Origin: Mustelus asterias
Lineage: Eukaryota
DNA length: 64,000 nt
Reading direction: 5' to 3'
Assembly: GCF_964213995.1 (NCBI RefSeq)
Contig: NC_135817.1
Location: forward strand, 64,914,001-64,978,000
Of this stretch, positions 9,441-39,819 are shown one piece after another; within the stretch, counting starts at the first letter, position 1, and each line of letters starts with the position of its first letter. The position numbers and the translations under genes were made by a program. The notes beneath the pieces are model-generated. The model saw only the letters and a list, made by a program, of their open reading frames with translations, did no database searches and had not been told where the DNA came from.

Positions 9441-9567
9441 ATTCACCTGATGAAGGAGCAGCGCTCCAAAAGCTTGTGATTCCAAATAAACCTGTTGGAC
9501 TTTAACCTGGTGTTGTGAGACTTCTTACTGTGCCCATCCCAGTCCAACACCGGCACCTCCACATCAT
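9441..9567 (+). mobile_element. Penelope-type pLTR fragment with a hammerhead ribozyme carrying a core mutation (GAAA to AAAA)
   Basis: TCAC CTGATGA A GGAGC AGC GCTCC AAAA GCTT GTGA, then ttccaaataaacctgttggactttaacctggtg...ccacatca. Confidence 0.75.
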
Positions 9568-10060
9568 GCTTCTTGTTAGACACCGATTTCCTATCCCTAT
9601 TATTATGTTACCCTCTACACCGTGAGCTTTTAATTTCCACAGTAACCTTTGCTGTGGCACTTTACTAGACACCTTTTAAAACATTTTAAAGAATAGAATA
9701 TCTATGTATCAATATAAACATCTCAGAATTAGAGTGAGATTACAGTCAACAGACACAAGAGATTTTAATCCAGCCTTTGGACCTGGATTCCAATCATGGC
9801 CATGACATTGAAAGACTGGTATCTACATTTCTTGAATGTTCACATGTGTGATTTGTTTGGGGAAAAGGACACATTTTCCAACAGTGTAAATCTAACATTT
9901 CTCATGCCTTTCATGTATGGTTTTTGAATGAAATTGATGCACTGATCTAGCAGAATGTGGTAAATATTGGAATTGTCATTTATTTTTAAGTACAGTTCTA
10001 AGTGATTTATTTGTGATGAGGAAACCAGCTTCTGAACTCCATTTCTGCACCTTTTTTCAG

Positions 10061-10198
10061 TTCTTTAATGTTGTAAGTTACATGATTGGTGGAGAAGTCT
10101 TTTCGCTGCAAGACATTGAAAATGGTGTTCTTCGTGGGAACCGCAAAGGCATCGCTCAGATGTCGAAACCATTCTCAAAGGGTGATCCACGTCTTAAG
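10061..10198 (+). CDS. DEP + DUF547 protein, exon
   Basis: Acceptor caccttttttcag|, donor AAG|gtcaat; FFNVVSYMIGGEVFSLQDIENGVLRGNRK...PFSKGDPRLK contains the DUF547 Y.IGG..FSL.DIE.G.LR motif. Confidence 0.93.
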
Positions 10199-10789
10199 GT
10201 CAATTGTTGATTGTCTCTGTGTACTGCTGGGTGGATATAAATGAGAGGGTTCTGTGGGAAATTTCTTCTGTAGATAATTACCTATAGATCTGTAATCCTT
10301 CTTGTTCTTCCTTCAGTGTGTTAACCTCAAACTGAAACAGATTGTCAAGATTTCTTAACATGTGCCTTTACCCTGTCTGAGATGCAACTGTTTCAGTTTC
10401 ATCAAATCCCAGTAGCAAAGCGGTGTTTCAAACTATAAAATCAAAATAACCTAGCAACCTTCGAAAGCTTAGCTATACCTGTCCATCACAGCTAAATGAT
10501 TTAAATGTTTAAAATGAGAATTTGGTTGGTGTTGAGGTTAATCTCGTTTGGAAACATCAGGCTGATCCTAATGGTGGGATTCAAAACCAGGTCCTCATCA
10601 CCCTGGGTCTCTGGATTACTAGCTGAGTGACAATATCACTGCACCACTGCATCCCCATGACAAATGCATGTTTTAAATGTTACACTAAAGAAGCTGACAA
10701 TAATTTTTTCAAATGATCTAAAAAAGAAATTGATCTTAATCTTTGAGCCATTGTCTACTATATTTACATGTAACCCAACTGCGCCTAGG

Positions 10790-11513
10790 TAGAGGGATCT
10801 GGATGGCTGTGTTCATGAATCACCAAAAGTCAGTATGCAGGTGCAGCATGTAATAAAAAAGGCAAATGGGATGTTGGCATTTATTGCAAAGGTACTGGAG
10901 TATAAAAGTGGAGAGGTGTTGTTGCTAATTGTATAGGGCGTTGGTGAGACTACATCTGGAGTATTGTGTCCAAATTTGGTCTCCTTACTTGAGGAAGGAT
11001 GTGGTGGCATTGGAGGCACTTCAGAGGCCGTTCACCAGATTGATTCTGGGGATGAAAGGGTTGGCGTATGAGGACAGATTAAACAAAATGTGCTTGAACT
11101 CACTGGAATTTAGAAGGATGAGGGGGGATCTGGTCAAGGTATATAAAATACTAAAGGGATTGATAAAGTAAATGTAGACCAAATGTTTCCTCTTAGGGGC
11201 AATCTAAAACAAGAGGTCACAGGTATAGGTTGAGAGCGGTAGATTTAAAACTGAGATGAGGAGGAACAACTACTCGCAGAGGATGGTGAATTTGTGGAAC
11301 TCGCTGTCCTATAGCGCGATGGAGTCTGAATCATTAAATAGTTTCAGGAAGGAGATAGATAGATTTCTGATGTTTTAAAAAGGGATAAGGGCATATGGAA
11401 ACAGGTAGAGAGGTGGATTTGAGACCAAGGAGCGATCAGCCATGATCTGATTGAATGGCAGGGCAGGCTCGAAGGGCTGAATTTGCCCACTTCTGCTCCT
11501 AGTTCCTATGTTC
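10790..11513 (+). mobile_element. CR1 LINE 3' fragment
   Basis: ORF YRALVRLHLEYCVQIWSPY...RRMRGDL; ends in the CR1 tail cctagttcctatgttcc. Confidence 0.85.
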
Positions 11514-11549
11514 CAACTGCTCCCCCACATTCTAGTGCAAAATCAAGTA

Positions 11550-12110
11550 AATCAGGGTATTCTGTAAACTGTGGTCCTCCCATTGACTCCAGAGGATATG
11601 GCAGAGGCATCCCTGCATGCAATTTGTCTAGTGCTCTTAAATGTCAATGACACTGAATCCAGGTTGCACTGCAGTACAGAAACATGGATGGCAAAAACAA
11701 CTGCACTGTACTTTTGTTGACTTGAAGAGGTCTCTGTTGTCAAACACTCAGTGTAGTTTGTAGAATTGGCCTAGCTGATCTGGCACTGGACCTCCTTGTC
11801 AATAGTGGCCTTTTGAGAAAGATGATTGTCAAGGTATACCGAGTGCTCAACATAGTCCAGGATCTCTCCTTCAACATATGTGGGAGGTGGAATATTTGGC
11901 TGACTCAGTGTGGGTCAATACAGGTTTTATTTTGGCAACATTCAAGGACATAGGCCAAGTTTCTTGAATGCAGAATTAGAGGAATCAAGAGCGGCTTGCA
12001 AATCCGATGCTCAGCAAGCATTGCAGTCATCGACAAACTGTAAACCATGTATATCTTTAGTGGCCAGTACTGTTTTGGCATGGAGGTGATTGAGGTTAAC
12101 GAGTATTCCA
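11550..12110 (-). mobile_element. RTE-clade LINE fragment, highly degenerate
   Basis: Minus-strand remnants VEHSVYLDNHLSQKATIDKEV...CLCHILWSQWED resemble the RTE post-RT region. Confidence 0.5.
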
Positions 12111-12113
12111 CCT

Positions 12114-12322
12114 ATGATGTGGAGATGCCGGCGTTGAACTGGGGTGGGCACAGTAAGAAGTCTCTCAGCACCAGTTTAAAATCCAACAGGTTATTTGGAA
12201 TCACGAGCTTTCGGAGTGCTGCTCCTTCCTGGCCACTCACCTGAGGAAGGAGCAGTGCTCCGAAAGCTCGTGATTCCAAATAACCTGTTGGACTTTAACC
12301 TGGTGTTGGTGAGACTTCTTAC
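12114..12322. mobile_element. Penelope-type inverted pLTR pair with a hammerhead ribozyme on + (12237-12273)
   Basis: Arms 12153-12230 and 12244-12322 are imperfect reverse complements; TCAC CTGAGGA A GGAGC AGT GCTCC GAAA GCTC GTGA. Confidence 0.8.
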
Positions 12323-12923
12323 AATATTCCATGTAGCCAGTATTAATACTGACACCAGAGAGCAATTGATCTTTGAGATGAATAGCCAGGTCAATTGTAA
12401 ATAGACTGGAAATTATCACAGCCTTGCTTGGTCCTAGTCTGAATTTTGAAAGCATGTGTTTTAGATTTCCCATTTAAGACCATTACAGTTATATTATCAT
12501 GAAGCATTTTCAGGATTGCGAAGTTACTTGGACATCTTAATCATTGGAACACAAACCAATGAAGCCTCATGATTTAGTTAACCAAATGCTTTTGTCAGGT
12601 CAATGGATGCAGTGAAGAGTGTTTAATTCTGTTCAAGATTTTTCTTGGATTTGTCTGGCAACTAAGAGCATGCTGGAAATCCTCTGGAAGGCCTAAAGCC
12701 ATCATGTTTCTGGGAGGATTTCATCAGTCACAGGAAGTAAGTGGAAAAAAGTCCATTAGAAAATGGCTTCTGGAATACCATCGGGGCTGGTGGTATTGGT
12801 TTTTTTTCTGCTCAATTGACAGGTAGTGGCCTATTGGTATTGTCAGTAGACGAGTAATCCAGAAATTCCCTCTGGGGACCCAGGTTCAAATTCCACCATG
12901 GTGGATGGTGAAGTTTGAATTTA

Positions 12924-13190
12924 GGGCAGCATAGTGGCACAGTGGTTAGCACTGCTGCATCACAGAGCCAAGGCTCGGGTTCAATTCCAGCTTTGGGTGA
13001 CTGTCTGTGTGGAGTTTGCAAGTTCTTCCAGTGTCTGCGTGGGTTTCCTCTGGGTACTCCAGTTTCGTCCCATAGTCCAAAGATGTGCAGGTTAGGTGGA
13101 TTGGCCATGCTAAATTGCCCCTTAGTGTCCCAAGATGTGTAGGTTAGAGGGATTAGCAGGGTAAATGCATGGGGTTACAGGGATAGGGGG
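12924..13190 (+). mobile_element. HE1-type SINE, 3' truncated, preceded by a family-2 SINE head (about 12820-12920)
   Basis: gggcagcatagtggcacagtggttagcactgctgc head followed by the V-SINE-like core. Confidence 0.8.
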
Positions 13191-13329
13191 TGGAGGGGGA
13201 GGATTTGCAGCAGGAAGATAGAACAGGTTTTGAGCGAGTATAGAAACCAGGAAGAAGGCACGTTCTGTGAGAGGCTGGAGAGATTAAATTACACAAAGAA
13301 TGATCATGCAAAACATGAGGTCTGTATAT

Positions 13330-13750
13330 TCATAGAATCTCTACAGTATGGAAAGAGGCCATTCAACCCAGCGAACCTGTACCGATCACACTCCCACCCA
13401 GGCCCTATTCCCGTAACCCCACACATTTACCCTGCTAATTCCCCGAACACTTGACAAAGGGCCATCTGGACTCCAAACGTCAGCTCTTTTCTCTCCTTAC
13501 AGATGCTGCCAGGCCTGCTGAGATTTTCCAGCGTTTTCTCTTTTGGTTTCAGAACACTAGGGTTAATTTAGCATGGCCAATCAACCTAACACGCACGTAC
13601 ATCTTTGGACTGTGGGATGAAACCCATGCAGACATGGGGAGAACGTACAAACTCCACACAGACAGTGACCTGAGGCCGGAATTGAACCCCCCCCCCCCGC
13701 CCCGGGTTCCTGGTGCTGTGGGACAGCTGTGCTTAACCACTGTGCCACCC
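13330..13750 (-). mobile_element. HE1-type SINE (CR1-like tail) interrupted by a second-family Penelope-type fragment (13452-13551)
   Basis: Insert flanked by 7-bp TSD GAACACT (13445-13451 and 13552-13558); it starts with a decayed hammerhead TTGACAA AGGGCC ATCTG GACTC CAAA CGTC. Confidence 0.75.
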
Positions 13751-13953
13751 CGGGGTTGGGTAATGGGATAAGTAAAGGAACAGAAGATGGCTTCAGAGAA
13801 GGTGGAGTAGGATCATTACCAACAGCTGTGTCCAAGAAAATAAGAGCAGAGGTTTTGATTTAGAAGTATTAAATTTTTGAGTGATTGTAAACTGCCTAAA
13901 GATTAAGCTGTTCCTCGCACTTCATCAGAATGGTGTCGGTGGCCAAGGACAGA

Positions 13954-15022
13954 GGGCACGATTTACAGGCTGTGTTCACTGTCGGATAAGAACAGCGACC
14001 TGGACGGAAAATCTGGAGAGAATCGGGAAGCGCAATCCTCTCCAGACGGATTACATTTCCCAATTGTTCCCTTGCTGGTGACATCACAGGATTTACACTC
14101 ACAAAGGGCGAGAACCTCACTTTAATAGATTTAAATCCATTTTAATATCAGTCTGACCTCCCCCCCACTCACTGAATATTCAAAACACATTTGCGAGGTT
14201 TACAACAGCTTTTTAAAAATGAGATTCAATTAAGGGGATTCCCCCCCCCCTTCCACCCCCATGGATACAAAGTTGCCCAGGCAATGCCCTGGCAGTGCCA
14301 AGGGGAAATGCCAGGGTGCAGTGCCAAAGCAGGCCCTCATCATTTATTTATTAGTGTCACAAGTAGGTTTACATTAACCCTGCAATGAAGTTACTGTGAA
14401 AATCCCCTAGTCGCCACACTCCGGTGCCTGTTTGGGTACATGGAGGGAGAATTTAGCATGGCCAATGCACCTAACCAGCACGTCTTTCGGACTGTGGGAG
14501 GAAACCGGAGCACCCGGAGGAAACCCACGCAGATACAGGGAGAATGTGCAAACTCCACACAGACAGTGACCCGAGCGGGGAATTGAACCTGGGTCCCTGG
14601 CACTGAGGCAACAGTGCTAGCCACTGTGCCACCCCATTGGAGCCCCATGGGGGGGGAATGCAGGTGGTGAGGGGGGGGGGGGGAGAAGAAAAGGAGAACA
14701 GGCAGTGGGGGTGGGGGGAACTTGCAGGCATAAGTGGGCATTGAGGGGGAAAGAAATGGGTTGGGGTTCCCCCAAAGATTGTGCCAAGAGATAGGCAGGT
14801 GGGAAGAGCCCCTGAAGCTAGTGCCAGGGGAGTCTCAATTTCCTCCATGGGGGGGGGGGGGGGGGGATGGGAGGTTTAATTCAATGGTTAAACACCACCC
14901 ACTTTTTTTTAGTCTAGGAGGCTCAAGATCTGGAGAGAAACCTGGGCTGTGCAGCTGAAGAGCAGCACACTGGTTTTCAGTCAGAGCCTGACACTTTGAA
15001 CAAATATAGTATGATTCCGCCC
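13954..15022. mobile_element. About 1-kb GC-rich MITE-like element containing a tail-B SINE (14341-14635, minus)
   Basis: Ends gggcacgattta ... atgattccgccc; internal motifs such as gggcagtgcc recur at 32262-33280 and 38430-39059. Confidence 0.55.
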
Positions 15023-15326
15023 AGCTCCAAAATCCCAAACATGCTTCCCAGTTAAAACACTGATTAACTTGTACCACTTTCCCCGAGCTTCCTCACCTAT
15101 CATTTTTATTCCCTGCCCCACTCTGTCCTCCGCCTCCTATACACTGGATTTTAAAAGTGACCTGCAAGTTATGGGAACAGCTTTACTTTGTCTACCTAAT
15201 CCAAACTTGTAATCGTGTACATCCCAGGCTCAATCTCCCCTGAATGCTCTTTGCTGCAAGGGGATCAAGCCCACCTTCTCCTAGCTCACCTTGTTTTAAA
15301 AGTGACTCACGCTTTTGATTTTTCAG

Positions 15327-15416
15327 ATTGCCCTGGAGGAAGCAGAGCCACTTATTCATTTTGCTCTAAACTGCGGAGTCCTAAGTTGCCCTCCAATCAA
15401 GACCTACTCTGCTGAG
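15327..15416 (+). CDS. DEP + DUF547 protein, exon with conserved Cys pair
   Basis: Acceptor ttttgatttttcag|, donor GAG|gtttgt; IALEEAEPLIHFALNCGVLSCPPIKTYSAE matches the DUF547 hallmark P.IHFAL.C...SCP. Confidence 0.93.
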
Positions 15417-15599
15417 GTTTGTCGTTAATCTCGGAACATTGTTTTAAAATGATTATTCGTGTTACTTGTTCCCACCATCTCCCCTCTCCTTCATTAAGGA
15501 GGAGGGTTCAGAATGACTTTGTCTGCACTAGAACTTTGATTTCTAAATGCCTATGCTTTTCAGTAGTTCATTTTTCCCCCCCATCATTTTGCCGAGTGA

Positions 15600-16325
15600 A
15601 GTGTGTGTGTAAGGATAGACTTCAAGAGGACATCGACAGAATAGTGGAATGGACAAACAAATGGTAGAAGAAATTTAATGCAGAAAAGTGCAAAATGATA
15701 CATCAGGCAAAATAAAATGAAAGATACTATTTTAAAGGGGATCTAGGAATGTGGAGACTTTGGGCAACATGTGCACTTGAGCAATGAAAAGGCTCATAGG
15801 AAGCCAGGCAATTTAATTAATCACAGGCATACAGTACAGAACCTTTATAAAACACTGGTTTGGCCTAAACTGGCCTTTTAGCTCCAATTCTAGGCACCAC
15901 ATTACATTACACCACCACATTACAGTGAGGGCATTAGAGAGGATGCAGAAAAGATTTACGTGAATGGACCCAGAATGAAGGACTTCAGCTGTGTGGAGAA
16001 GCTGAGGTTGTTTTCCTGGGAGAAGAGAGGGTTGAGAGTAGATTTCACTGAAGTGTTCAAAATCACAAAAGGCAACGTGAGGAAAAAGATTTTTTGATGT
16101 GACGAGTGATTGGGGCGCAGAATGTGTTACCCAAAAGTGATTGAGGCAGCTTCAATTGTGGTTTCCTGAAGTGGGATTGGGTAAATGTGTGAACAGAAAA
16201 AAATTCCAGAGCTATGGGGAAGGGCTTGTGGGGGTGGAGGCACGGTGGTATGGAAGGTGACAGGACTAGAGTAATTCCACTTGCAGGGAGACCTGACTGC
16301 ACTCCTCCTGCACTGCGATTCCACC
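15600..16325 (+). mobile_element. CR1 LINE 3' fragment, old and degenerate
   Basis: CKDRLQEDIDRIVEWTNKW, then tataaaacactggtttggcct...tggcattagagaggatgcagaaaagattt-type RT C-terminal sequence. Confidence 0.7.
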
Positions 16326-16761
16326 ATGTGATATTAGAATCATGATCTCATATTTCACATACCTTGTCCGAATGGAAAGCTGCCATTAACGGATGTAGAA
16401 AGGTAAACTGAACAGTCATTATGACCATCTTGAATCAGAAAGTTCACAAACATAAAACAACAGAATTAAAGCACAATTCTCTTAAGAGTTTGAGGGTTGC
16501 TCACAATGTTCAAGTCTAGGCCCACCTTTAAATGGCATAACAGAAATGCACAATCTACCAGAATTTTACACATTTTAATTTCTGGTCCATACCAAGTCAA
16601 CTAACCTCAGCTGGGAAACAGTGGGGTGCACTACAATTTGTCTTTCTGCCTGGGTATAGGATCAACCAGGACTATTGAGTGATCCCTGCAGACTGTGTAT
16701 ATACAGTGAGGAGTCTAACAACACCAGGTTAAAGTCCAACAGGTTTATTTGGTAGCAAACG

Positions 16762-16798
16762 CCACGAGCTTTCGGAGCGCTACTCCTTCGTCAGATGG
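16762..16798 (-). ncRNA. Minimal type-I hammerhead ribozyme
   Basis: CCAT CTGACGA A GGAGT AGC GCTCC GAAA GCTC GTGG; core intact, stem II with one U-G pair. Confidence 0.65.
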
Positions 16799-16807
16799 CG
16801 AAGGATT

Positions 16808-16844
16808 CCATCTGACGAAGGAGCAGCGCTCCGAAAGCTAGTGG
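16808..16844 (+). ncRNA. Minimal type-I hammerhead ribozyme
   Basis: CCAT CTGACGA A GGAGC AGC GCTCC GAAA GCTA GTGG; core intact. Confidence 0.7.
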
Positions 16845-17003
16845 CGTTTGCTACAAAATAAACCTGTTGGACTTTAACCTGGTGTTGTTAGACTCCTTAC
16901 TGTGTTTACCCCAGTCCAACGCCGGCATTTCCACATCACGACTGTGTATATATCCAGGCATTCATTGTGAGTAGAACTAGACTTGGCTGTTTTCCTCTGA
17001 ATG

Positions 17004-17230
17004 TGTAGTATAAGGGTCTGGCGCATACAGGGTTAATGTGGGACTGGGTACAGTACCACCCACAGAGTGATGTAAGAAGGCACACAACCCAGAATCAGTG
17101 ATGTTGAGCAGAGACATGTAAAGACCTAAACACGGAGGCAGCCCCAAGCCTTAACATATGTAAAAGGTTCCTGCAGTTAATAAAGACTTGGTTTACAGAA
17201 AACTCAAGAATCACCATTCTGTTGGTTACA
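17004..17230 (+). mobile_element. Possible short solo LTR
   Basis: TGTAGTA ... TTACA ends with an internal AATAAA; flanks gaatg and gcaatg give only an imperfect TSD. Confidence 0.4.
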
Positions 17231-17326
17231 GCAATGCCCTCCCAACAGAATGCACATACCGACCACGAGTAAGATGTTGAAGGGTTTCTGGAACCTTGCC
17301 AAAACAAAGTATTTTTCATAGTATCC

Positions 17327-17663
17327 AATCATAGAATCCCTATAGTGCAGGAGGAGACCATTTGGTCCATCGAGCCTGCACGGACTCTCCAACAGAGCAT
17401 CTTACCCAGGCCCCTTCCCCCACCCTATCCCCGTAACCCTACATATTTACCATGGCTAATCCACCTAACCTATACATTTTGGGACACCAAGGGGCAATTT
17501 AGCATGGCCAGTCCACTTAACCCACACATCTTTAGAGTTTTGGGAGGAGACTCACGCAGACACGGGGAGAATGTGCAACTTCCACACAGACAGTCACCCA
17601 AGGCCAGAATCAAATCCAAGTCCCTGGCATTGTGAGGCAGCAGTGCTAACCACTGTGCCACCC
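17327..17663 (-). mobile_element. HE1-type SINE, CR1-like tail
   Basis: aatcatagaatcc tail and reverse-complement head gcagtgctaaccactgtgccaccc. Confidence 0.85.
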
Positions 17664-17706
17664 ATGATGTAGTTAATTTACAAATTTTTGAATTGTTCAA
17701 TTCCAG

Positions 17707-17850
17707 GAAATTGACAAACAGCTGAAGATTTCAGCTGCAGCTTTTCTTGACAGTTCCGACGGCTGCCATGTTGACGTGTCCAAAAAGGAAGTCCGCGTAA
17801 GCCAACTTTTCAAATGGTACAAGGCTGATTTTGGTGGAACAGATGAAAAG
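17707..17850 (+). CDS. DEP + DUF547 protein, exon
   Basis: Acceptor ttgttcaattccag|, donor AAG|gtaact; EIDKQLKISAAAFLDSSDGCHVDVSKKEVRVSQLFKWYKADFGGTDEK has the S.IFKWY..DFG motif typical downstream of DUF547. Confidence 0.92.
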
Positions 17851-18452
17851 GTAACTGAATTAACTTGTCAATTTTCACTCTTGTTCTTGAACACAAGTGC
17901 AAGTAAACTGATAACGGAGTACATTTCTAACACTAAATTTTGAGACATTGGCTGAATTTTTGAGACGTGGGAGGAAGCTGTTTGAATGAGAAAATCCAGA
18001 AGAGAAATCCCTCAGACTCTGCTGAATTTTACCGCAAGTCTCGATTAACCATTTTTTAAAAAACCCTTCCAGTGACAGCCAGCCAGTTTGAGGGGTTGGC
18101 TAACTGTCAGGCTGGGAGCAGCCAGGGTACAGAGTGGGAGGGAGGAGTTGTGAGATCAGAAGTCTCGTGAGGGAGGTTAATCGGATTGCCTCATTCCGAT
18201 GGGCGAGTGAAGCAGAATGTTGAATCCAATAGAAAAGGGGAAAGGCATTTAACTCAGAACAACCCTGCCATTGTAGTTGTCAGGTTTCTCCAAGGCCCAG
18301 GAAACCAGACTGGCTAGAGTTAAATTTGAAATGCACCTCATTATAACAGTTAAATTGTGAAACTGCCTCCTAGAACTGAGTCGGTTGCCCACTCTATCCA
18401 TTCTTGAACCCGTCCTGTTTGAGACTCCACAACTACATAAACAATACCAGCT

Positions 18453-18732
18453 GGGCAGTACGGCGGCACAGTGGTTAGCATTGTTGCCTCACAGCGCCAG
18501 GGACCCGGGTTCAATTTCTGGCTTGGGTGACTGTACGAGTCTGCACGTCTCTTCGTGTGCGTGTGGGTTTCCTCCCACAGTCCGAAAGACGTGCTGGTTA
18601 GATGCATTGGCTGTGCTAAATTCTCGCTCAGTGTACCTGAACAGGCACCAGAGTGTGGCGACTAAGGGATTTTTGCAGTAACTTCATTGCAGTGTTAATG
18701 TATCCCTACTCATGACACTAATAAATAAACTT
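18453..18732 (+). mobile_element. HE1-type SINE, tail variant B
   Basis: Head plus tail cagtaacttcattgcagtgttaatg...gacactaataaataaacttt. Confidence 0.85.
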
Positions 18733-18869
18733 TACCTCACCCACCACCACCACCTCTCAACAAGTCTATTGTCTCTAATTTGTCACATCAATTATCCAAC
18801 ACCCAGTACTGGATGTGTAGAAAGCTATTGCCTTTGGTCTTTGCCTTGAAATTCATTCAAGGGCAATAG

Positions 18870-19133
18870 ATACATGGGAACACCACCACTTGCAAGTTCT
18901 CCTCCAAGCCACTCACCATCCTATCTTGGAAATACATCGTTGTTCCTTCACAGGCCTCACTTCGCAGTCACTGGGTCAAAATCCTGGAGTCCCCTCCCTA
19001 ATGGCATTGTGGGTCAAACCAAGACCCACAAGTTTCAAGAGGGCAACTCACCACCACCTTCTCAAGGGCAACTAGGAATGGACAATAAATGCTGGCCATC
19101 CAACGATGCCCATGTCCCATGAGAGAATTAAAA
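18870..19133 (+). mobile_element. 3' end of a non-LTR retrotransposon (CR1/L2 group); related pieces at about 27290-28035 and 57000-58180
   Basis: caccaccaccttctcaagggcaactaggaatggacaataaatgctggcc...cccatgagagaattaaaaa recurs in the window in both orientations. Confidence 0.6.
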
Positions 19134-19261
19134 ACCATCTTTCTTACAGATTTGTATCTCACCTCATATTCTTCAATCCATTTTCACCATAATAGGTATG
19201 TAATTTTATAAAATTTGAAGAAATATTTAGTTTAACAAGTGCACTTTTTTCTCCTGCATAG

Positions 19262-19390
19262 TTGCTGAGCTGGTTGCTAGAGCATCTAGGAGATTCACCA
19301 AAGAAAGCAGCATTAAAAGAACTCCTGGATCACGGGGAAATCAAAATTGCCACCCTTCCATACGACTGGTCAACAAATTCTACAGAGTGA
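19262..19390 (+). CDS. DEP + DUF547 protein, last coding exon
   Basis: Acceptor ttttttctcctgcatag|; LLSWLLEHLGDSPKKAALKELLDHGEIKIATLPYDWSTNSTE* has the typical terminal YDWS.N motif; stop TGA at 19388-19390. Confidence 0.92.
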   Translation: MLSWLLEHLGDSPKKAALKELLDHGEIKIATLPYDWSTNSTE

Positions 19391-19918
19391 TGCCTGGTAA
19401 AAGTGGAAGTTATTGACTGCCTGCAATGAATATTCCAAACAATCCACTGCTCTTATTGCACACCTTCCGAAATAGTAACCAAATCTGTTTTGAACAGAAA
19501 ATTCAATATAAATTTCTCTCTGGAAATTATTTTGATTATGCTGTTTTTTTTAACCATTACTTCAAGCCCAGGTTCAAGCTTCATCATCAAGCAATACAAT
19601 TTTTTTGCACAATTTGTATTTTCAACAATTACTTTTCAAGTCTGTCAGTACAATTGAAAGGGACCCTTCTTTTCACCCTCTTAGACAGAGGTCTGAAATG
19701 TTTTCTCCCTCTTAGAGATCTGAAATTGCATTTTCTCCAGGCATTCTTTAAAGAAGTGTAAAACTCATTGTTTTTCCTCATTATCACCATTCTCTTCAAA
19801 GAACGTGTCTGAAAATATAGTAACTGTTAATTGTCCTTTTGTAAACGTTCATCAGTGACCAAAGATTTTAAGGGATGTACTATAATTTCTAAATTTTGTT
19901 TTCCACATGTTGAGCCAC

Positions 19919-19924
19919 AATAAA
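19919..19924 (+). promoter_or_regulatory. Candidate poly(A) signal of the DUF547 gene
   Basis: AATAAA about 530 nt after the stop, in AT-rich repeat-free sequence. Confidence 0.5.
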
Positions 19925-20219
19925 GTTGATGCAAAACACATCCTGACCATTTCATTTCAGATTTTATTGGTTGAAAAGCCACCCAGGGCTAACTGGAACG
20001 CCTGCCCAAGTCAGGGCAAACTTTGTACAGCCACCTGTATTGCTACTGGGTGTTATGGGACATTTGCCTTGGTGATTGGCAGGCAGTGTTGGTCAAATGT
20101 TTATACCTTGATTGTGTTTATAGTTCCTTTGATATATGGTCCCAACTCACTTTGCAGAACAATGCGGAGAAAAGTGGACTCTGAGTCAAAGAAGAAAATA
20201 TTGATGGGGTGGGGAGAGG

Positions 20220-20510
20220 GGTTCGCACTACTGCCTCACAGCGCCCAAGTACCCGGGTTCAATTCCTGGCTTGGGTTATTGTCTGTGCAGTCTGCACGCT
20301 CTCCCCGTGTCCATGTGGGTTTCCTTTGGGTGCACTGGTTTCCACCCATAGTCTGAAAGACGTACTGGTTAGGTGCATTGGCCATACTAAATTCTCTCTC
20401 GGTGTACCCAAACAGGTGCCGGAGTGTGATGACTAGGGGATTTTCGCAGGAACGTCATTGCAGTATTAATGTAAGCCTATTTGTGACACTAATAAATACA
20501 CGTAAACTTT
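20220..20510 (+). mobile_element. HE1-type SINE, tail variant B
   Basis: Core plus tail gtaagcctatttgtgacactaataaatac. Confidence 0.8.
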
Positions 20511-20697
20511 GATCTATTTTTTGTTTAAAGAATTGATTTTATGAAAGACTTCAAGGAGAATTGGGAGCCAGAGGAATTACGGCAGAGAATTGCAATGCAT
20601 GACACAGCTCTCAATGGGGGAAAGAGAATCTTATGTGAGGAGGAAATAAGGTTTTGGATTGATTTAATCATGTCGGCATCTTAAACATGTGGGTATT

Positions 20698-23990: not shown

Positions 23991-24384
23991 AGCCTCCAAA
24001 ATGGAATACCAATTTCAGGTCGTGATCACAACAGGTCATCAACTTGGAACATTAACTTTTTCCCCCTCTCCACCTGCTAAATGTTTTCCAAGCGTATTCT
24101 TTCTATATTTTCTGAATTCCAGCATCTATGGTGTTTGTATGTACATCTGCTTGTATTTTTCACTTAAAAGTCCAATAAATCCCTCCCCAAGTAGGGGTTA
24201 TACATAGGAACTTTACAGATGAAAATCAAAAAAAGCAACACCTACAATTCTGGAAGATAATGTTGTAAAACAAAGAAACCTATGAATCTTGGGCATTAGC
24301 AGTGAGTCATTCCTGTTGGGTTAAATGTGACTTATTACGGATGCTGCTGTGCTTACACACTGCTTCAGATATTGAATATGACAA

Positions 24385-25145: not shown

Positions 25146-26182
25146 TCCTGGATTTTAAACCTGGCATCTATCATTGCTCTGAATCCTTTCGGACTGCTTA
25201 TTCCTTGCCAGCAGAGCGGCCCAATCACGAGCGGACCAACGTGCTGGACACCAGACACCAAGTTGGTTTCTCCACTCCTGATCTCGAGCATCGGTGTCAA
25301 ACTGTTCCACCCATCCAAGCCCTTGCTGAGGCATGATTCACATACCCCCTTACCTGTTTGGTTAAGAGCTGTGATGGGCTCCAGTGCCACTGACATAATA
25401 CATGCAGTACATTCAGGTGACAAACGTGAACATTAGTGACACTACTTTATCACTTTGCATGTGTGGCCAGGCCTAGCAGACAGTAGCTGAAAGGTAATAC
25501 AAAAACAAAACGGCTGTGCCAGAAGTGGGGGACGATGGAAGTGACAGCATACATCTCAAAACTTGTCACAGGTTGAGAATGTGATCAATTTCTTACAACA
25601 TGCTAAGAGTTTCATGGTCCCTTGCTTATTAGTTTTTTTTTGTTCCAAAAGCAAATTTAAAATTCCCCAGCCGCTGTGGTGTAATTTGAACTCATATTGG
25701 GAGCATTAATCCAGGCCTCTGGATTACCAGTTCAATAACATAACCACTCAGCTACTATACCATCCCCTGGTGGTGGAAATGGTGATGTTAATTGGGTGAA
25801 TGTGGATACTGATTTGAGTGGAAGGTGAGGATAGCGTTCAGCCATTAGTCAGAGCAGCAGCCTGGGAAATGAGACACACCTCAGGAAAGATCCTACCGAC
25901 CACAATGGGCAGGAATCCTCAGTTGATGACACAAGAACATTTCAGAGGCTTTGGTGAAAGACGACGTCATCAGAAACAATGACAGAGAAACTAGAAAGAA
26001 CATAGTCCTTACAGATTAGTCATGACTTGAAATAATTGCAATGTTGAGTATTGACTGCCTTTTTATCAAGCTAATATAATTAATACATTAATCTCCTAGC
26101 AGTTCTAGTTGCAAAACTACAGGCTCCAGTTAAACTACAACAGTGATCAACATCAACTCCCAGTCAGGCTAAACTCCACTTC

Positions 26183-26457
26183 AGTGGCACAGTGGTTAGC
26201 ACTGCTGCCTCTCAGCGCCAGGGACCCGGGTTCAATTCCTGGCTGGGGTCACTGTCTGTGCAGAGTCTGCACATTCTGTGTCTGCGGGGATTTCCTCCCA
26301 CAGTCCGAAAGACGGTCTGGTTAGGCGCATCGGCTATGCTAAATTTTCCCTCAGTGTACCTGAACAGGTGCCGGAGTGTGGCGACTTGGGGATTTTCACA
26401 ATAACTTCATTGCAGTGTCGATGTAAGCCTACTTGTGATACTAATAAACTTTAAACT
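26183..26457 (+). mobile_element. HE1-type SINE, tail variant B
   Basis: Head gtggcacagtggttagcactgctgcctc; tail gtaagcctacttgtgatactaataaacttt. Confidence 0.85.
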
Positions 26458-28635: not shown

Positions 28636-28908
28636 GGCAGCACAGTGGTCAACACTGCTGCCTCACAGCGCCAGGGACCTGGGTTCGATTCCCGGCTTGG
28701 CTCACTGTCTGTGCAGTTTGCACGTTCTCCCCGTGTTTGCGTGGGTTTCCTCCGGATGCTCCGGTTTCCTCCCACAGTCCGAAGGACATGCTGGTTAGGT
28801 GCATTGACCCGAACAGGCGCTGGAGTGTGGCGACTAGGGGAATTTCACAGTAACTTCATTGCAGTGTTAATATAAGCCTTACTTGTGACTAATAAATAAA
28901 TTTTAAAT
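28636..28908 (+). mobile_element. HE1-type SINE, tail variant B
   Basis: Head ggcagcacagtgg, core ggtttcctccggatgctccggtttcctcccac, tail cttgtgactaataaataaatttt. Confidence 0.85.
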
Positions 28909-28984
28909 TATTCACAAGCCACAATACAATGTACTTACCATACATCGAGTTGCGTTGGAACGTGGGAAAATATAATAAGCACAA

Positions 28985-31900: not shown

Positions 31901-34225
31901 CTCATAAAAGTAACATTAAAACCTAATGTCGAAAAAACTGGGAGTCAAAGTCCAGTGTTTAACTAATATAACAGCCTTAACAATCATAATTTGTCCAGAG
32001 ACTTAATATTCTCATTGCATTATGTCAGAAGATAATGCAACATGAAAGAAGAACATTTATTAAGCTAGTCAACTTTGAACTTTTTGTTCATCTCTCATTT
32101 CTGCAGCTCATGCAGAAGAGCAAAGATTCTTTAGCATTGTGTTGTTTTGGAAGACAACAAGGCATACACATAATAAATTCACTTCAGCTGTTATATTCAG
32201 TAGCTTTAAGCTCTTCAACCGTACTTAAATAGCTGCGCCTGTGCTTAACAGCATTTACACTGGGCTAAATTTTCAAGGGAAGATAATGGTGAGTTTAGGA
32301 TGCGTGGCGTTATTAATCTGTAAATTGACCAGCATGTCCAGGAGAGGAAGAGATACATTGGAGGCGATTTTACCATCACGTTGCGCCTGCTTTTGGGCGC
32401 AACATGGTGGCACAGTGGGCCGTAACTCGTCGAGTGCAACCGGTGGCTGTTTTCACAGGTGGCGCCATTTTAGGAGTGTCGGATATCCGGTGCGGTCAGC
32501 TTCTTGCCGAAAATGGGTGACAGGCAGGTTAATATATTTAAATCTATTGAAATGACCATTTGCATCTGCTCACCCAACCCGGCGCTCAATTGTCCAGGCT
32601 CAGCCCCCTCTTTGTGATCTGTCCAGGAAAGGTTCGCGGCAGCAAGGAATAGACATGCTCCCTCCCCATGAACAGGGAGCAATCGACTTGGTCTCACCAA
32701 TGGAACTGGAGGTCACTGAGGCCCTGTGGGGAGATCGATGGCAAGGGGGTGCCTCTTGGGCAGTGCCAGACTGAGTGCCACCCTAGCACCTGGGCAATGC
32801 CTACTGGGCAGTGCCAGGGGGTGGGGCTAATGGCAGAGAGGCCAGTAGGGGGATGGACCCACTGCCACTCTGCAGCAATTGGTGGGGTGGAGGGAGGGAG
32901 AGGGGGCCCGCTGCCACTCTGCGGTCCGCGATCGGTAGGGGTGGGGTTCTACGATTGATCTGGGTGGCACAAGGTGGTTAGCAGGGGCTGCATCTTGGGC
33001 CTCGGGGCCCCCAGCAGCTTGCAGTAGCAGGGGCCTGACAGCTCTCTATTTTCTGTCAGACCCCTGCTCCTGCTAATGTGCAGCATCAGTAGCCTGCACA
33101 TACGTACTACCTCCCTCTGCAGTCTTTCAGATGAGTTAAGCCGCCCCACCAGCTTCTGCAACACGAATCTGACAAGAGAGGAGAGAGGAGAGAACGGGAC
33201 GGACGGACTAAAACAGGCCTAAAAGTCTCTCAGTTTCAAGTCTGCCCACCACTTAGAATGAAAATGGTAAAATCACCCCCATCACTAAGTTATGAATTTA
33301 CAGAATCTTCTGGTCAATTTACTGTTTGCCTCATACCAAACATCTCACCCATGATCTTCTTAAGAACCTGTTGGATTTGTACATTAATTGCCCATTAAAC
33401 CTGCTATTGAGTTAGGTTTCATGAAGTACCTTATTAAAGATGTCAATGCAATGTCAATCTCTCGGGCCAGAAAGTAAATAATTTAAATGGCTGAGTTTCA
33501 ATCCTGCTTGCGGCAATTTTTCATAAAGACAGTTCAAGTTTGAATTATTTTCCTTTACTTTAACTTTCTTTTTCTCTCTCAATCAATCCAGTCTTTCTTT
33601 CTGTACCTGATTTGACTCAAATTCACATACTCTCCTTTTCAGTTGTAACTCTTTATTTCTCAGTCCTTCAATTTCATTGATTGATATACACTGTTGTTTA
33701 CCAAGGTCCTACCCAGATGCCCTGTCACTAGCTCACATTTCCAGCAAGTTACTGCACAAATTGTATTGAAACTGAAGGATGTGGAGAAATACTAACAGTG
33801 TAGACCACAAGATGCTCCAATAAGATACCGGCCAAACAAGTGTTCTGGTTCTCTCCTTGTGCTGTTAGACCACTGCCCTACTTGTACTGCACTAAATTTC
33901 CAATTTGACGTGGCAAAGACAAAAGTTCATGTTGGTTTTTGAAGGTAGTACACCTCTCATCCATTTCTACAATGCATCTCAGGTTTATCCACACTTCATG
34001 ACTCTTCAGTGTAGGAGCACTTGGTGAATAAGTGCTACTGCTTTTAAATTTGGTGTCCTTCTCAAACATGTACGTTTGATATTTTGTCTTCTTTGACCTT
34101 TTTCTGTGCTGAGCCTATTAACCTTACATGGCACTTTGATTAAGCTGAGATGAAATCTGTACAGTACTGTAAATTGATTTCCTAGCTCGACTATGGCCAC
34201 TCTCTCGCAAGGCATCCCTAGTCAC
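28985..34225 (-). other. ZNF654: ZNF654 inferred terminal non-coding exon (long 3'UTR); 3' end approximate
   Basis: Minus-strand acceptor ccatttctgccttccag|GTGAC at 34226/34225; AT-rich with no recognisable SINE or LINE; minus-strand poly(A) signals AATAAA (29789-29794) and ATTAAA (29003-29008). Confidence 0.6.
32262..33280. mobile_element. About 1-kb GC-rich MITE-like element within the putative ZNF654 3'UTR
   Basis: Ends gggctaaattttc ... gtaaaatcaccccc; sharp GC/CpG contrast with the flanks; motifs shared with 13954-15022 and 36364-39059. Confidence 0.6.
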
Positions 34226-35129
34226 CTGGAAGGCAGAAATGGATCACAATTATTCATTCACATTTATTTCACTTAATGAAGAAAATCTTAATGGCATACA
34301 TTTAAGGTATAACCTACAACCAGGATTAGGAGCCCGTAGGCCAAAAAAACTTGCTTATCCAATTATAATAGCTTAGTTTAATATGCATGCAAATACTCAA
34401 TTTCCAAATTTTCCCCACAAAGATAAATGTTCAAAAAAAGTAAAGGAATACTGCAAGCAAGTAAAGTGAAATCAGTACGAGAAGCTACATGAAATCAGGA
34501 AACGGTTTAAAAATGGCAGCAAGGCTCATTTTGTACAGCAGGTCTAATTTCTAGAGAGATCACTGAAAACTACATAGGAAGATATTTATTTTGTTTTCTA
34601 CAGTCAACTCAAGCACTCATTGCTACAAATTTTAGATTGGTCAATGACTAAATCACACCGCTAAACTTTAAACTATATAATGTATGAATATCTGTGCTAA
34701 AAGTGTTGCCTCAGAATGTCATGCAACTTTCCTGCACTTGCACAGAACAAATCTAGGAATGTAGACGCACAAAGTCACTCAAATCTGTTATGAAAACAAA
34801 TGTAGTTTTAAGGGATTTATATTAGTATTGGTAAACATTACAAATACGGTACAGTTTTAAGTGGGTTTAATTTAATGTTTGTGTGCCTATAATTAGATTC
34901 ATGCTGGAGAAAGGCGTTTGTATGCATGGGGGTTGGTTTCAATTCCAACTATTGCGCTGAGAGGGGGTTATGGCATGAAAAGTAAATAGAGACCGGCAGA
35001 AGTAGCAGTAGTTGTTTAGCAACGGACTTGTATGGTAAAATGGCTTTTGAATTTTTAGTTGAATTTGTTTGCGGTTGGAGACAGGACACTGGGGAGTGAA
35101 CATCTCTCAACTCTGCCCAGAGAAGCTGG

Positions 35130-35252
35130 GTAAGAAGTCTCACAACACCAGGTTAAAGTCCAACAGGTTTATTTGGTAGCAAATACCATAAGCTTTCGGA
35201 GCACTGCTCCTTCGTCAGATGGAGTGGTCTCTGTTCTCAAACAGGGCACAGA
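35130..35252 (-). mobile_element. Penelope-type pLTR fragment
   Basis: 14-bp TSD CCCAGAGAAGCTGG (35116-35129 and 35253-35266). Confidence 0.85.
35186..35222 (-). ncRNA. Minimal type-I hammerhead ribozyme, sense to ZNF654 pre-mRNA
   Basis: CCAT CTGACGA A GGAGC AGT GCTCC GAAA GCTT ATGG; stem I CCAT/ATGG, stem II GGAGC/GCTCC, AGCU palindrome. Confidence 0.72.
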
Positions 35253-35515
35253 CCCAGAGAAGCTGGACAGGACAAGGGAACTACAAAGACACAGACAGCC
35301 CAAATAACCTAATACAGTCCAGATAACAAAGGAATTGGAACAGAAAACCTCAGTCTTAATATATTCTCAGAGAACAGACACCAAGGTATCGTTCAAGGGG
35401 AATTCAAAAGGGAGAAGCAGAAAAAGTGTTGCGAGTTAAAGAGACAGTTGCACTAACCAGATTTAAAGTGGGGAAGCAGAATTCAGAGATAAATGAAAAG
35501 TTTGATGCTACTTTA

Positions 35516-35821
35516 ATAGAATCGCTACAGTGCAGGAAGAGGCAATTCGGCCCATTGAGCTTGCACCAACAACAGTCCCACTCAGGCCCTATCTCTGCAA
35601 CCCCATGCGTTTACCCTGCTAATTTCACTGACACTAAAGGGCAATTTAGCATGGCAATCAACCTAATCCACTCATCTTTGGACAGTGGGAGGGTACTGGA
35701 ACACACACAGACATGGGGAGAGATGCAAACTCCACACAGACAGTTACCCAAGGTCGGAATTGAATCTGTGTCCTTGGTGCTGAGAGGCAGCAATGCCAAC
35801 AACTGTGCCACCATGCAGCCC
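35516..35821 (-). mobile_element. HE1-type SINE, CR1-like tail
   Basis: atagaatcgctacagtgcagg tail and reverse-complement head ctgtgccaccatgcagccc. Confidence 0.8.
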
Positions 35822-36613
35822 AGAGTCTGGGAATTGAGAGTTAAGGCAAATATGAACTGTCTGTACAGCAGCTAAGACAAAAAAATCCTATAGGAATAGT
35901 TGTAAACCCTGGATAAATTGTTAAAAGTGGAAGCTTCATTTAAAGGAGCCATTTAGAAAACATGGATTGGATTTCAGAATTTAAACCGCTGATGGAAAGC
36001 AGTGTTGTGAAGGAGGATTTTAAAGTATGTTTTCTGGGAGTGGAGTTTAGAAACTCTCATGTGACAATCATCTGGGGGAATTTTGAGGTAAAATCCACAG
36101 ACACTAACTTGGGCTTAGAGCACAGGATGTGTTTTAACATAGCCAGTGTGTTTAAAGGGACCTGCATTACTGAGACCATTGTAGCTTATGATATACTTTG
36201 TAATCCATGTTAACCTTAAACTCAGTGTGTATTTGTTAAGAAAAGGTGGAGTAAAAGAGTATCGCATCATTATCCAATTTTTCATGCTTAATAGCTGCTT
36301 TTTTTCTTGTTAAAACCAATAAACAGTCCAGTGACACTGTTCACCAACATTTTGTAAAGTTACGGGCGGAATTTTACGAGAATAATTCTGAGTGCCCAGC
36401 TAGGTGAAAATGGGAGAGTTCCTAATCCGTTTTTTGGGCAAGTTTTCATGCCAAATCTTATAGACTTAGACATTGAAAAAATGGTCTAGACCATTTCTAG
36501 CTGCTACAGGCAGTGGGCTGGGCTTAATTCGCCAGCCAGCCTGCAGAGGGAGCTATTGCGCATGCACAGACCTCTAATTACGCACATGCGCAATTTCAAC
36601 AGCAGAGGTCTGA

Positions 36614-38428
36614 GAGAACATAGAACAGTACAGCACAGAACAGGCCCTTCGGCCCACGATGTTGTGCCGAGCTTTATCTGAAACCAAGATCAAGCTATCC
36701 CACTCCCTATCATCCTGGTGTGCTCCATGTGCCTATCCAATAACCGCTTAAATGTTCCTAAAGTGTCTGACTCCACTATCACTGCAGGCAGTCCATTCCA
36801 CACCCCAACCACTCTCTGCGTAAAGAACCTACCTCTGATATCCTTCCTATATCTCCCACCACGAACCCTATAGTTATGCCCCCTTGTAATAGCTCCATCC
36901 ACCCGAGGAAATAGTCTTTGAACGTTCACTCTATCTATCCCCTTCATCATTTTATAAACCTCTATTAAGTCTCCCCTCAGCCTCCTCCGCTCCAGAGAGA
37001 ACGGCCCTAGCTCCCTCAACCTTTCCTCATAAGACCTACCCTCCAAACCAGGCAGCATCCTGGTAAATCTCCTCTGCACTCTTTCCAGCGCTTCCACATC
37101 CTTCTTATAGTGAGGTGACCAGAACTGCACACAATATTCCAAATGTGGTCTCACCAAGGTCCTGTGCAGTTGCAGCATAACCCCACGGCTCTTAAACTCC
37201 AACCCCCTGTTAATAAAAGCTAAGTAAGAAGTCTCACAACACCAGGTTTAAGTCCAACAGGTTTATTTGGTAGCAAATACCATAAGCTTTCAAATAAACC
37301 TGTTGGACTTTAACCTGGTGTTGTGAGACTTCTTACTGTGCTTACCCCAGTCCAACGCCGGCATCTCCACATCATGAATAAAAGCTAACACACTATAGGC
37401 CTTCTTCACAGCTCTATCCACTTGAGTGGCAACCTTTAGAGATCTGTGGATATGGACCCCAAGATCTCTCTGTTCCTCCACAGTCTTCAGAACCCTACCT
37501 TTGACCCTGTAATCCACATTTAAATTAGTCCTACCAAAATGAATCACCTCACATTTATCAGGGTTAAACTCCATTTGCCATTTGTCAGCCCAGCTTTGCA
37601 TCCTATCTATGTCTCTTTGCAGCCTACAACAGCCCTCCACCTCATCCACTACTCCACCAATCTTGGTGTCATCAGCAAATTTACTGATCCACCCTTCAGC
37701 CCCCTCCTCTAAGTCATTAATAAAAATCACAAAGAGCAGAGGACCAAGCACTGATCCCTGTGGCACTCCGCTAGCAACCTGCCTCCAGTCCGAAAATTTT
37801 CCATCCACCACCACCCTCTGTCTTCGATCAGACAGCCAGTTACCTATCCAATCGGCCAACTTTCCCTCTATCCCAGACCTCCTCACTTTCATCATAAGCC
37901 AACCATGGGGGACCTTATCAAACGCCTTACTAAAATCCATGTATATGACATCAACTGCCCTACCTTCATCAACACACTTAGTTACCTCCTCAAAAAATTC
38001 CATCAAATTTGTGAGGCACGACTTGCCCTTCACGAATCCGTGCTGACTATCCCGGATTAATCCGCATCTTTCTAAATGGTCGTAAATCCCATCCCCAAGG
38101 ACCTTTTCCATCAATTTACCAACCACCGAAGTAAGACTAACCGGTCTATTACCAGGGTCATTTCTATTCCCTTTCTTAAACAGAGGAACAACATTCGCCA
38201 CTCTCCAGTCCTCTGGCACCATCCCCGTGGACAGCCAGGACCCAAAGATCAAAGCCAAAGGTTCTGCAATCTCATCCCTTGCCTCCCAAAGAATCCTAGG
38301 ATATATTTCATCAGGCCCAGGGGACTTATCGACCTTCAGTTTATTCAAAACTGCCAGGACATCCTCCCTCCGAACATCTATTTCCTCCAGCCTATTAGCC
38401 TGTAACACCTTCTCTTCCTCAAAAACAA
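36614..38428 (-). mobile_element. CR1 LINE, young 5'-truncated copy with essentially intact RT domain
   Basis: ORFs 37290..38495 and 36690..37202 (KSPGPD, YMDFSKAFDKVPH, GVPQGSVLGP, FADDTK, PHLEYCVQFW) rejoin as VLAFINRGLEFKS once the 37224-37376 insert and one TSD copy are removed; tail gttctatgttct. Confidence 0.95.
37224..37376. mobile_element. Penelope-type inverted pLTR insertion, ribozyme core deleted
   Basis: 12-bp TSD AATAAAAGCTAA (37212-37223 and 37377-37388); inverted arms gtaagaagtctcacaacaccagg... and ...cctggtgttgtgagacttcttac. Confidence 0.85.
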
Positions 38429-39071
38429 AGAGAGAGCGCTGACAGGCCACGACTGGTTGAGACAGCCTGAACCAGCTCCCACCCAACCCCCGCAATCATA
38501 AGGCCTATGGCTAATTGTGAGCCCCACACAGCACGGAGCTTGATACCAGCCCCTGCTGCCTTCCAGACCGATTGCGCCCCTCCCCCCCAATCCAATCGCG
38601 ATGCAGAGCGGCAGCGGGCTCCCCTCCTTCCCCAATCGGGCTGCCCCTTTTGGCCCCACCCGCTGGCACTGCCAGGCTGACAGTGCCAAGGTGCTAGGCT
38701 GACAGTGCCAAGGAACATCCCCCCTTGCCTTCTGCCTCCCTGGGAGGGGGGTTGGCGGGGGCGGGGGGGGGGGGGGGGACACACCTCAATAGTCTCTGGT
38801 TCCACCAGCAAGGCAAACACAACTGTTCCCCTGACCAGAGAGAACCTCTCCCGGCAAGTCCACAAAGGTAACTGAGCCTGGACGATTCAGCGCCGGACTC
38901 GCTAATGCCATGTAAAGTAGCACTACAATAAATTAATTTACTCAGCCTCCCACCCACTTCCGGCACGAGGTGACCGCGCCGGAAATCTGGCTCTTGCACA
39001 CAATTTTACCAGTTTGATCCGCCCATCGATAGGTGGGGTGAGCCGGTAAAATCCTGGCCATGGTCTTTTCA

Positions 39072-39188
39072 CAGTAAGAGTTTTAACAACACCAGGTTAA
39101 AGTCTAACAGGTTTATTTGGTAGTAAATGCCATTAGCTTTCGGAGCGCTGCTCCTTCGTCAGATGGAGTGGAAATCTGCTCTCAAACA
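39072..39188 (-). mobile_element. Penelope-type pLTR fragment
   Basis: 12-bp TSD ATGGTCTTTTCA (39060-39071 and 39189-39200). Confidence 0.85.
39130..39166 (-). ncRNA. Minimal type-I hammerhead ribozyme, sense to ZNF654 pre-mRNA
   Basis: CCAT CTGACGA A GGAGC AGC GCTCC GAAA GCTA ATGG; core and stems intact. Confidence 0.72.
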
Positions 39189-39813: not shown

Positions 39814-39819
39814 TTTATT
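39814..39819 (-). promoter_or_regulatory. Candidate intronic/proximal poly(A) signal of ZNF654
   Basis: AATAAA on the minus strand about 52 nt after the stop codon. Confidence 0.35.

Follow-up and report, generated by a model that had tools for sequence, protein, structure and literature searches.

What kind of element has left short hammerhead ribozymes in the introns of shark genes, and can the copies cut the RNA in which they lie? The question is raised by a stretch of 64,000 nucleotides from the shark Mustelus asterias (NC_135817.1:64,914,001-64,978,000, forward strand; called the window here, with all positions counted from its first letter), in which an initial annotation had seen six insertions of one family, at 9441, 12114, 16704, 35130, 37224, and 39072, and had proposed a recently active, ribozyme-bearing Penelope-type retroelement. 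All six were located at these positions (c1 to c6), and self-BLAST revealed no further copy of the family in the window and no head-to-tail tandem units of it. Very probably, the copies are short insertions of the hammerhead-bearing pseudo-long terminal repeat (pLTR), or 5' leader, of a shark Penelope-like element (PLE), likely of the Neptune type, and the ribozyme is likely a passenger at this locus.

Three of the insertions (c2, c3, and c5) are head-to-head inverted pairs, an arrangement that the initial annotation did not mention, so that the six insertions comprise nine arms, marked m (minus) or p (plus) within a pair. The arms stop at one of two fixed 3' ends. Five (c2p, c3m, c4, c5m, and c6) have a short end at TTAC or TTACTG, and four (c1, c2m, c3p, and c5p) carry a tail that runs 38 to 40 nt further, two of them ending in CATCATG. 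Exactly one arm of each inverted pair is tailed (3 of 3), and among the single arms, c4 and c6 are short and flanked by target-site duplications (TSDs), while c1 is long. Two subfamilies can be told apart: A (c1 and c2), which is 7 nt shorter and has a UCAC/GUGA stem I, and B (c3 to c6), which has CCAU/RUGG. The insertions and their parts are as follows.

9443-9568, plus strand: c1, single tailed arm of subfamily A, without TSD and with a 5' edge uncertain by a few bases (9441/9443)
9447-9475, plus strand: core of the c1 hammerhead, with G12A
9529-9568, plus strand: c1 tail, ending in the element's ATG (9566-9568)
8794-10060: predicted intron of the DUF547 gene holding c1, in sense
12114-12322: c2, inverted pair, in intron 10199-15326
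12114-12230, minus strand: c2m, tailed arm of subfamily A that begins inside the hammerhead core and has no CUG
12233-12322, plus strand: c2p, tail-less arm with intact core 12241-12269 and stem I UCAC/GUGA, predicted to be buried in the c2 hairpin
16704-16939: c3, inverted pair, in intron 15417-17706
16691-16703 and 16940-16952: left and right TSD of c3, 13 bp
16704-16798, minus strand: c3m, tail-less arm of subfamily B, core 16794-16766, stem I CCAU/GUGG
16807-16939, plus strand: c3p, tailed arm, core 16812-16840, predicted to be buried in the c3 hairpin
35130-35252, minus strand: c4, single tail-less arm in which 30 nt of the element precede stem I
35218-35190, minus strand: intact core of the c4 hammerhead, stem I CCAU/AUGG, sense in the last intron of ZNF654
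35116-35129 and 35253-35266: TSD of c4, 14 bp
37224-37376: c5, inverted pair without a whole hammerhead, inside a reverse transcriptase (RT) frame of a long interspersed nuclear element (LINE)
37224-37291, minus strand: c5m, tail-less arm
37291-37376, plus strand: c5p, with a tail ending in ATG
37212-37223 and 37377-37388: TSD of c5, 12 bp
39072-39188, minus strand: c6, single tail-less arm with 22 nt upstream of stem I
39162-39134, minus strand: intact core of the c6 hammerhead, stem I CCAU/AUGG, sense in the last intron of ZNF654
39060-39071 and 39189-39200: TSD of c6, 12 bp

The hammerheads themselves were largely as first described. A search with the motif pattern returned six matches, one with AAAA in place of GAAA, against none in 100 shuffled sequences, and a generic descriptor (CUGANGA, stem II, GAAA, UH, and a 4-bp stem I) found the five intact motifs and no others in the window, passing over the AAAA copy (c1) and finding nothing in 30 of 30 Markov controls. 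The core is that of a minimal type I hammerhead, intact in five of six motifs and altered by G12A in the sixth. All six share an extra base between positions 9 and 10.1, a G10.1-C11.1 pair, and a palindromic stem III reduced to AGCU; position 17 (H17) is U, C, C, A, U, and A, and so is never G, as had been claimed. The search with Rfam models that had been proposed as a check matched no hammerhead family, either across the window (E ≤ 1) or with c6 as the sole query (E ≤ 10), and yielded only chance hairpin matches; the motif has no monomeric helix III and does not match the Rfam hammerhead model. The conserved 28-base hammerhead pattern had no locus in viral, metagenome, or prokaryote collections.

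Exact TSDs of 12 to 14 bp had been reported for four insertions, and c3 to c6 indeed carry them (13, 14, 12, and 12 bp, respectively); the longest repeat at 2,000 random position pairs, used as the null, was 9. Arms diverge from one another by about 4 to 15%, and the differences within pairs (4 of 92 positions in c3 and 6 of 78 in c2) indicate copies young enough to retain TSDs and not brand new. The proposal of recent activity is weakly supported: the four exact TSDs favor it, but the arms diverge, and no empty allele, or joint skipping c6, is listed among the contigs of sequencing run X1. A relative date is available for c5, which splits a 401-amino-acid LINE RT frame (36690-38495, minus strand; RVT_1 E value of 9e-31), which we take to be CR1-like, and is therefore younger than that LINE copy.

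Both 3' ends recur outside the window. Among the run X1 contigs over c6, 209 have loose ends with the tail consensus, marking the long end, and 116 have ends with heterogeneous flanks at the tail-less, short end. In total, 24,876 contigs from run X1 and 13,686 from run X7 (another organism code) aligned to a stretch of 1,151 bases with nearly all of the depth on c6, which indicates an abundant repeat family, with the provisos that contig depth in these alignments is not copy number and that run X7 contigs cover the c6 repeat and not its unique flanks. An inverted, 5'-truncated copy and a tail of 30 to 40 bp are described features of PLEs (PMC8557442, PMC3846280). The insertions have the marks of endonuclease-positive (EN+) PLEs, namely, a pLTR hammerhead, an optional tail at one end, an inverted copy, and a TSD of variable length.

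A PLE origin was borne out by the tail, which could be tied to a PLE reading frame through three proteins, P0121, P0123, and P0152. When translated, the tailed arms yield a frame of 21 residues that ends at the ATG of the tail, and a profile of these frames matched one of 221 candidate proteins, P0121 (E value of 6e-6), a fragment of an open reading frame (ORF) joined to the tail peptide, with 20 of 21 residues identical to c5. The 630-bp contig encoding P0121 fuses a PLE ORF to the end of a pLTR and may be an internally deleted element or a copy inserted within a copy. The first 92 residues of P0121 retrieve P0122 (Mustelus XP_078061335.1), P0123 (Heptranchias XP_067863884.1), P0124 (a whale shark model), P0125, and P0126. 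In P0123 and P0152, the tail peptide is continuous with the N terminus at which P0122 begins, and among 105 scanned proteins the peptide HLHIM occurs in three: P0121, P0123, and P0152. This continuity makes the tail's ATG very likely the start codon, and because the last ATG of the tail opens the PLE reading frame in these relatives, the copies can be read as solo pLTR or 5'-leader insertions.

The kind of PLE is suggested by P0126, an 881-amino-acid relative with 54% identity to P0122 over 332 amino acids and an RVT_1 match (E value of 3.8e-10). It contains DKG and YIDD motifs, a CX4CxxC linker at residue 743, and a GIY-YIG-like endonuclease motif (VYLIRC...C...YVGET). A CX2-5CxxC finger between RT and endonuclease is a feature of Neptune and Nematis that Penelope/Poseidon lack (PMC8557442), so the linker finger of this relative makes the family likely Neptune-like. 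An assignment to Poseidon was dropped, as the linker motif points to Neptune. The whale shark model P0124 has only the CxxC half of the linker, and the more distant P0161 matched a group I intron endonuclease model (E value of 7.8e-4).

Several results weigh against this account of the copies' origin. P0126 has no Pfam GIY-YIG match; tblastn of six PLE proteins against the window found no ORF remnant beyond the tail peptide; and the link to the ORF runs through three partial or chimeric gene models rather than contiguous DNA from pLTR to intact ORF. As to the extension of the consensus to an RT and GIY-YIG ORF, set as a check by the initial annotation, the tail joins a PLE N terminus in P0123 and P0152, and the RVT_1 match and GIY-YIG-like motifs are those of the relative P0126. 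Two copies also lack the expected borders: around c1 no TSD is present, and around c2 the only repeat is an offset one of 7 bp. The anatomy stands: TSDs, two fixed 3' ends 38 to 40 nt apart, and inverted pairs with one tailed arm.

A mechanism compatible with this anatomy can be outlined by analogy with work on the anole element PAc. An RT-endonuclease protein would nick both strands 12 to 14 bp apart, and cDNA would begin on uncut RNA at either of two internal sites, the ATG or a point 38 to 40 nt before it. Priming on one strand would give a single arm; priming on both would leave a pair of short cDNAs that meet at their 5'-leader ends, and hence an inverted pair in which one arm is tailed. 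After insertion, copies would either fold into long hairpins or decay neutrally, as in the case of G12A, which is a change at a CpG. The scissile bond bears on the state of the template: eight of nine arms span it and none begins there, which argues that the arms were copied from RNA uncut at that site. In published work, uncut RNA is the template and cleavage requires protein (PMC11167929). The inverted pairs could instead come from fold-back self-priming (PMC3846280), and the data here fit either route, a point against the two-strand version. The centers of the pairs differ: that of c3 (16799-16806) contains CGAAGGA, 7 nt that repeat part of the hammerhead itself, that of c2 (12229-12234) is the palindrome TGGCCA, and the c5 arms have one base in common. 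These sequences are possible traces of template jumps.

Could the short units instead be a nonautonomous family, such as a fold-back element resembling miniature inverted-repeat transposable elements or a retrozyme, that copies itself as a unit? Their small size, TSD boundaries, and high abundance (the 24,876 run X1 contigs on 1,151 bases) would suit such a family. However, the three palindromes differ in center and arm length and span two subfamilies, head-to-tail tandems are absent from the window, and the ends fall at PLE tail sites and at the ATG of the ORF; we regard a self-copying unit as improbable.

The initial annotation also held that the family seeds self-cleaving motifs into introns, and this part was not upheld: most of the copies probably cannot cleave RNA. 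G12A, present in one of six motifs, abolishes hammerhead cleavage. Three others are predicted to lie in hairpins: with 30 nt or more of flank in the fold, both stems of c2p, c3m, and c3p drop to a probability of 0.0, as the insertions close into extended hairpins (−134 to −182 kcal/mol). In the remaining two, stems I and II are kept with a probability of about 0.5 to 0.7 in c4 and 0.01 to 0.39 in c6. Stem III cannot close in a monomer, where it would be one pair on a 2-nt loop. In principle, only c4 and c6, the two copies in ZNF654, could pair. By energies that omit tertiary contacts, Mg, and protein, their double hammerhead is disfavored: it reaches −18.6 kcal/mol, whereas two monomers reach −21.6 and the best co-fold, 11 kcal/mol lower, −29.8.

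The copies might nonetheless be active intronic ribozymes, above all c6 and c4, which could pair through AGCU and cut ZNF654 pre-mRNA. Both cores are intact, in sense, and 3.9 kb apart, with matching CCAU/AUGG stems; all pairs of the intercopy double hammerhead are canonical; and in a full element the two pLTRs stand a similar distance apart, about 3 kb (PMC4209133). All three single-arm copies (c1, c4, and c6) are in sense to the host gene, although chance alone would give three of three 1 time in 8. Beyond the unfavorable energy, c6 misfolds locally in the minimum free energy structure of the 4.1-kb segment and does not pair with c4. Published minimal PLE hammerheads show no monomer cleavage and low dimer cleavage (PMC4209133) and need protein (PMC11167929), and one of nine Xenopus dimers cut (bioRxiv 10.64898/2026.07.22.740005). 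On this balance, intronic cleavage by these copies appears very unlikely.

Sequence comparison suggests that selection has acted on the fold in the source lineages, and the source element likely keeps its ribozyme. The covariation first reported for stem I is real as pairing (UCAC/GUGA, CCAU/AUGG, and CCAU/GUGG, as written) and involves fewer independent events than it appears to. All 54 of 54 cells are paired across the six motifs. The covariation score, which relatedness of the copies inflates, was matched by 8 of 500 shuffles, and the number of pairs with two-sided changes by 104 of 500, which is not unusual. Both two-sided changes in stem I map mostly to the split between subfamilies A and B, and the change in the outer pair can be read as small indels on either flank of the stem. 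At the inner pair, C-G, U-G, and U-A all occur, the full wobble path.

Contigs from four runs add a second view, in which variant shares are depth sums over contigs, a point that tells against leaning on them. Variants at 4% or more occur at two positions just outside stem I (one at 32 to 51%), and inside its 3' strand the only variant listed is A>G (22 to 39%), which preserves a U-G pair. At position 17 the only variant listed is A>U (11 to 47%), and G is never listed. G12A (3 to 7%) and C11.1U (2 to 8%) fall in a CpG, and we read the AAAA of c1 (G12A) as probable neutral CpG decay. Subfamily A contigs are clipped, so conservation of the core is partly an alignment effect, which weakens the argument from the 5' core. 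That the stem I pattern arose only through the divergence of two subfamilies, with no selection on the ribozyme, would agree with the A/B split, the flanking indels, and the unremarkable count of two-sided changes, but complete pairing, an inner pair in all three states, variation that halts at the stem edge with no G17 listed, and the same core conserved across PLEs (PMC4209133) make it extremely unlikely.

A more specific form of the PLE account is that the copies are complete run-off cDNAs of the transcript's 5' leader rather than 5'-truncated ends of a long template, which we put forward tentatively and think rather doubtful. The RNA would start at the edge of stem I, and RT would start at the start codon or 38 to 40 nt before it; the tail between these sites would straddle a 3' splice site, placing the hammerhead in a leader intron, so that only unspliced RNA could serve as template. 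Four of nine arms (c3m, c3p, c2p, and c1) begin at the edge of stem I or up to about 6 nt upstream of it, which together with the ATG link suggests run-off copies of the leader; the agreement is modest, as three of these four sit at palindrome centers. The others start 30 (c4) and 22 nt (c6) upstream of stem I or inside or after the motif (c2m, c5m, and c5p). In P0123, the match to the tail peptide begins only at a CAG within the tail, consistent with a 3' splice site at that point. In Drosophila virilis Penelope, the start site and a leader intron lie inside the pLTR (PMC2377424, PMC8557442), and the intron ends at helix I (PMC4209133). The short end was also considered as a splice branch point, and this was set aside: at 14 nt upstream of the G of the CAG it is close for a branch site and has no direct support. 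If run-off is correct, a single model would account for intron retention in PLEs, for their requirement for tandem copies, and for the great number of solo pLTRs.

All six copies are intronic in shark genes, in agreement with the initial annotation: c1 to c3 in a DUF547 gene and c4 to c6 in ZNF654, with intron calls based on homology and splice signals, not on RNA of M. asterias. The gene features are as follows.

34226-39870, minus strand: predicted last intron of ZNF654, with a GTAAGT donor at 39870 after the stop codon, containing c4, c5, and c6
8794-17706, plus strand: three consecutive predicted introns of the DEP/DUF547 gene, with c1, c2, and c3
Ending 8793, 10061-10198, 15327-15416, and starting 17707, plus strand: exons of the DEP/DUF547 gene

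ZNF654 is an 821-amino-acid frame (42337-39875) with best matches to Carcharodon (87%) and Scyliorhinus (85%) proteins and with upstream exons to 50188. The single strict acceptor candidate for its last exon, at 34225, yields the EGD ending of other sharks. A run X17 contig, taken for RNA only by guess, matches to 39869 and continues with 440 nt from elsewhere. Placement of c6 in the 3' untranslated region was rejected, as the donor follows the stop codon and the run X17 contig departs there. The stop codon lies 1 nt ahead of the last donor (39874-39870). In Heptranchias and Mobula the ZNF654 protein continues into EGD; in Carcharodon, Scyliorhinus, and others it ends at that point, which suggests that the last exon has become noncoding in some sharks. 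A tandem duplication of about 80 bp (44419-44578, 86% identical) lies in a ZNF654 intron.

The DEP and DUF547 gene (about 4085-19390, plus strand) is convergent with ZNF654; five of its exons, which carry DUF547 or motifs downstream of it, were mapped, along with one weak DEP match. The Pfam exon search covered 150 of 352 candidate frames below 39,800 plus four window frames; other small genes at 27 to 34 kb are possible. The c1 tail contains a candidate splice acceptor (9539-9544, plus strand), in sense within the DUF547-gene intron, that could act as a cryptic acceptor. An abundant repeat of about 270 bp occurs at 7147-7411, 12924-13188, 18462-18734, 26184-26455, 28640-28908, 52292-52576, and 54849-55121; a weak Rfam tRNA match (26178-26250, E value of 0.42) accompanies it, and it is probably a tRNA-derived short interspersed nuclear element.

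Minimal hammerheads in PLEs are already published, and the class is known. The shark motifs share with those in PMC4209133 the intact core, the extra 9/10.1 base, G10.1-C11.1, a 4-bp helix I, the palindromic stem III, mostly dispersed single motifs with some opposite-strand pairs, and covarying consensus families; helix II is 5 bp in the shark copies, compared to 7 to 8 in Schistosoma families. Sharks are not named in the searched text or two supplements of that paper. With EN+ PLE units (Arkhipova et al. 2013, PMC3846280; Craig et al. 2021, PMC8557442) they share head-to-head arms, a tail at one end, a variable TSD, and solo pLTRs, but whole shark insertions are only 117 to 236 bp, and their tail ends at the start codon, whereas the pLTR and tail of Adineta Pen2a span the first 22 codons.

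In PAc, the green anole Poseidon element (Frangieh et al. 2024, PMC11167929), the tail is likewise defined by two internal RT starts, nicking and extension take place on both strands, and the template is RNA that has not been cut, as we propose here; its hammerhead, like that of the shark copies, lies upstream of the start sites. The PAc ORF, however, starts in stem II with the RT starts inside the ORF, whereas the shark hammerhead is about 90 to 100 nt upstream of the ATG, and relatives of the shark element carry the Neptune-type linker. Non-LTR retrozymes (bioRxiv 10.64898/2026.07.22.740005) also have a type I hammerhead, are related to pLTRs, and were reported in the one chondrichthyan sampled, but they are defined by head-to-tail tandem units, which the shark window lacks. 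Domesticated amniote hammerheads (RECK and CTCL; PMC6155905) are likewise type I motifs in introns, in contrast to which the shark copies are minimal, TSD flanked, and high copy. No paper describing the shark family by sequence was found in searches of the literature, and it may well be catalogued already, for example in Repbase or Dfam.

With the class known, the direct value of these results is annotation. With its great abundance in several shark genomes and two fixed 3' ends tied to a start codon, the family offers a large natural sample for questions about PLEs, such as where the template RNA starts and what role a conserved but weak hammerhead has. The c6/c4 pair in ZNF654, in turn, provides a construct for asking whether dispersed copies cut host pre-mRNA.

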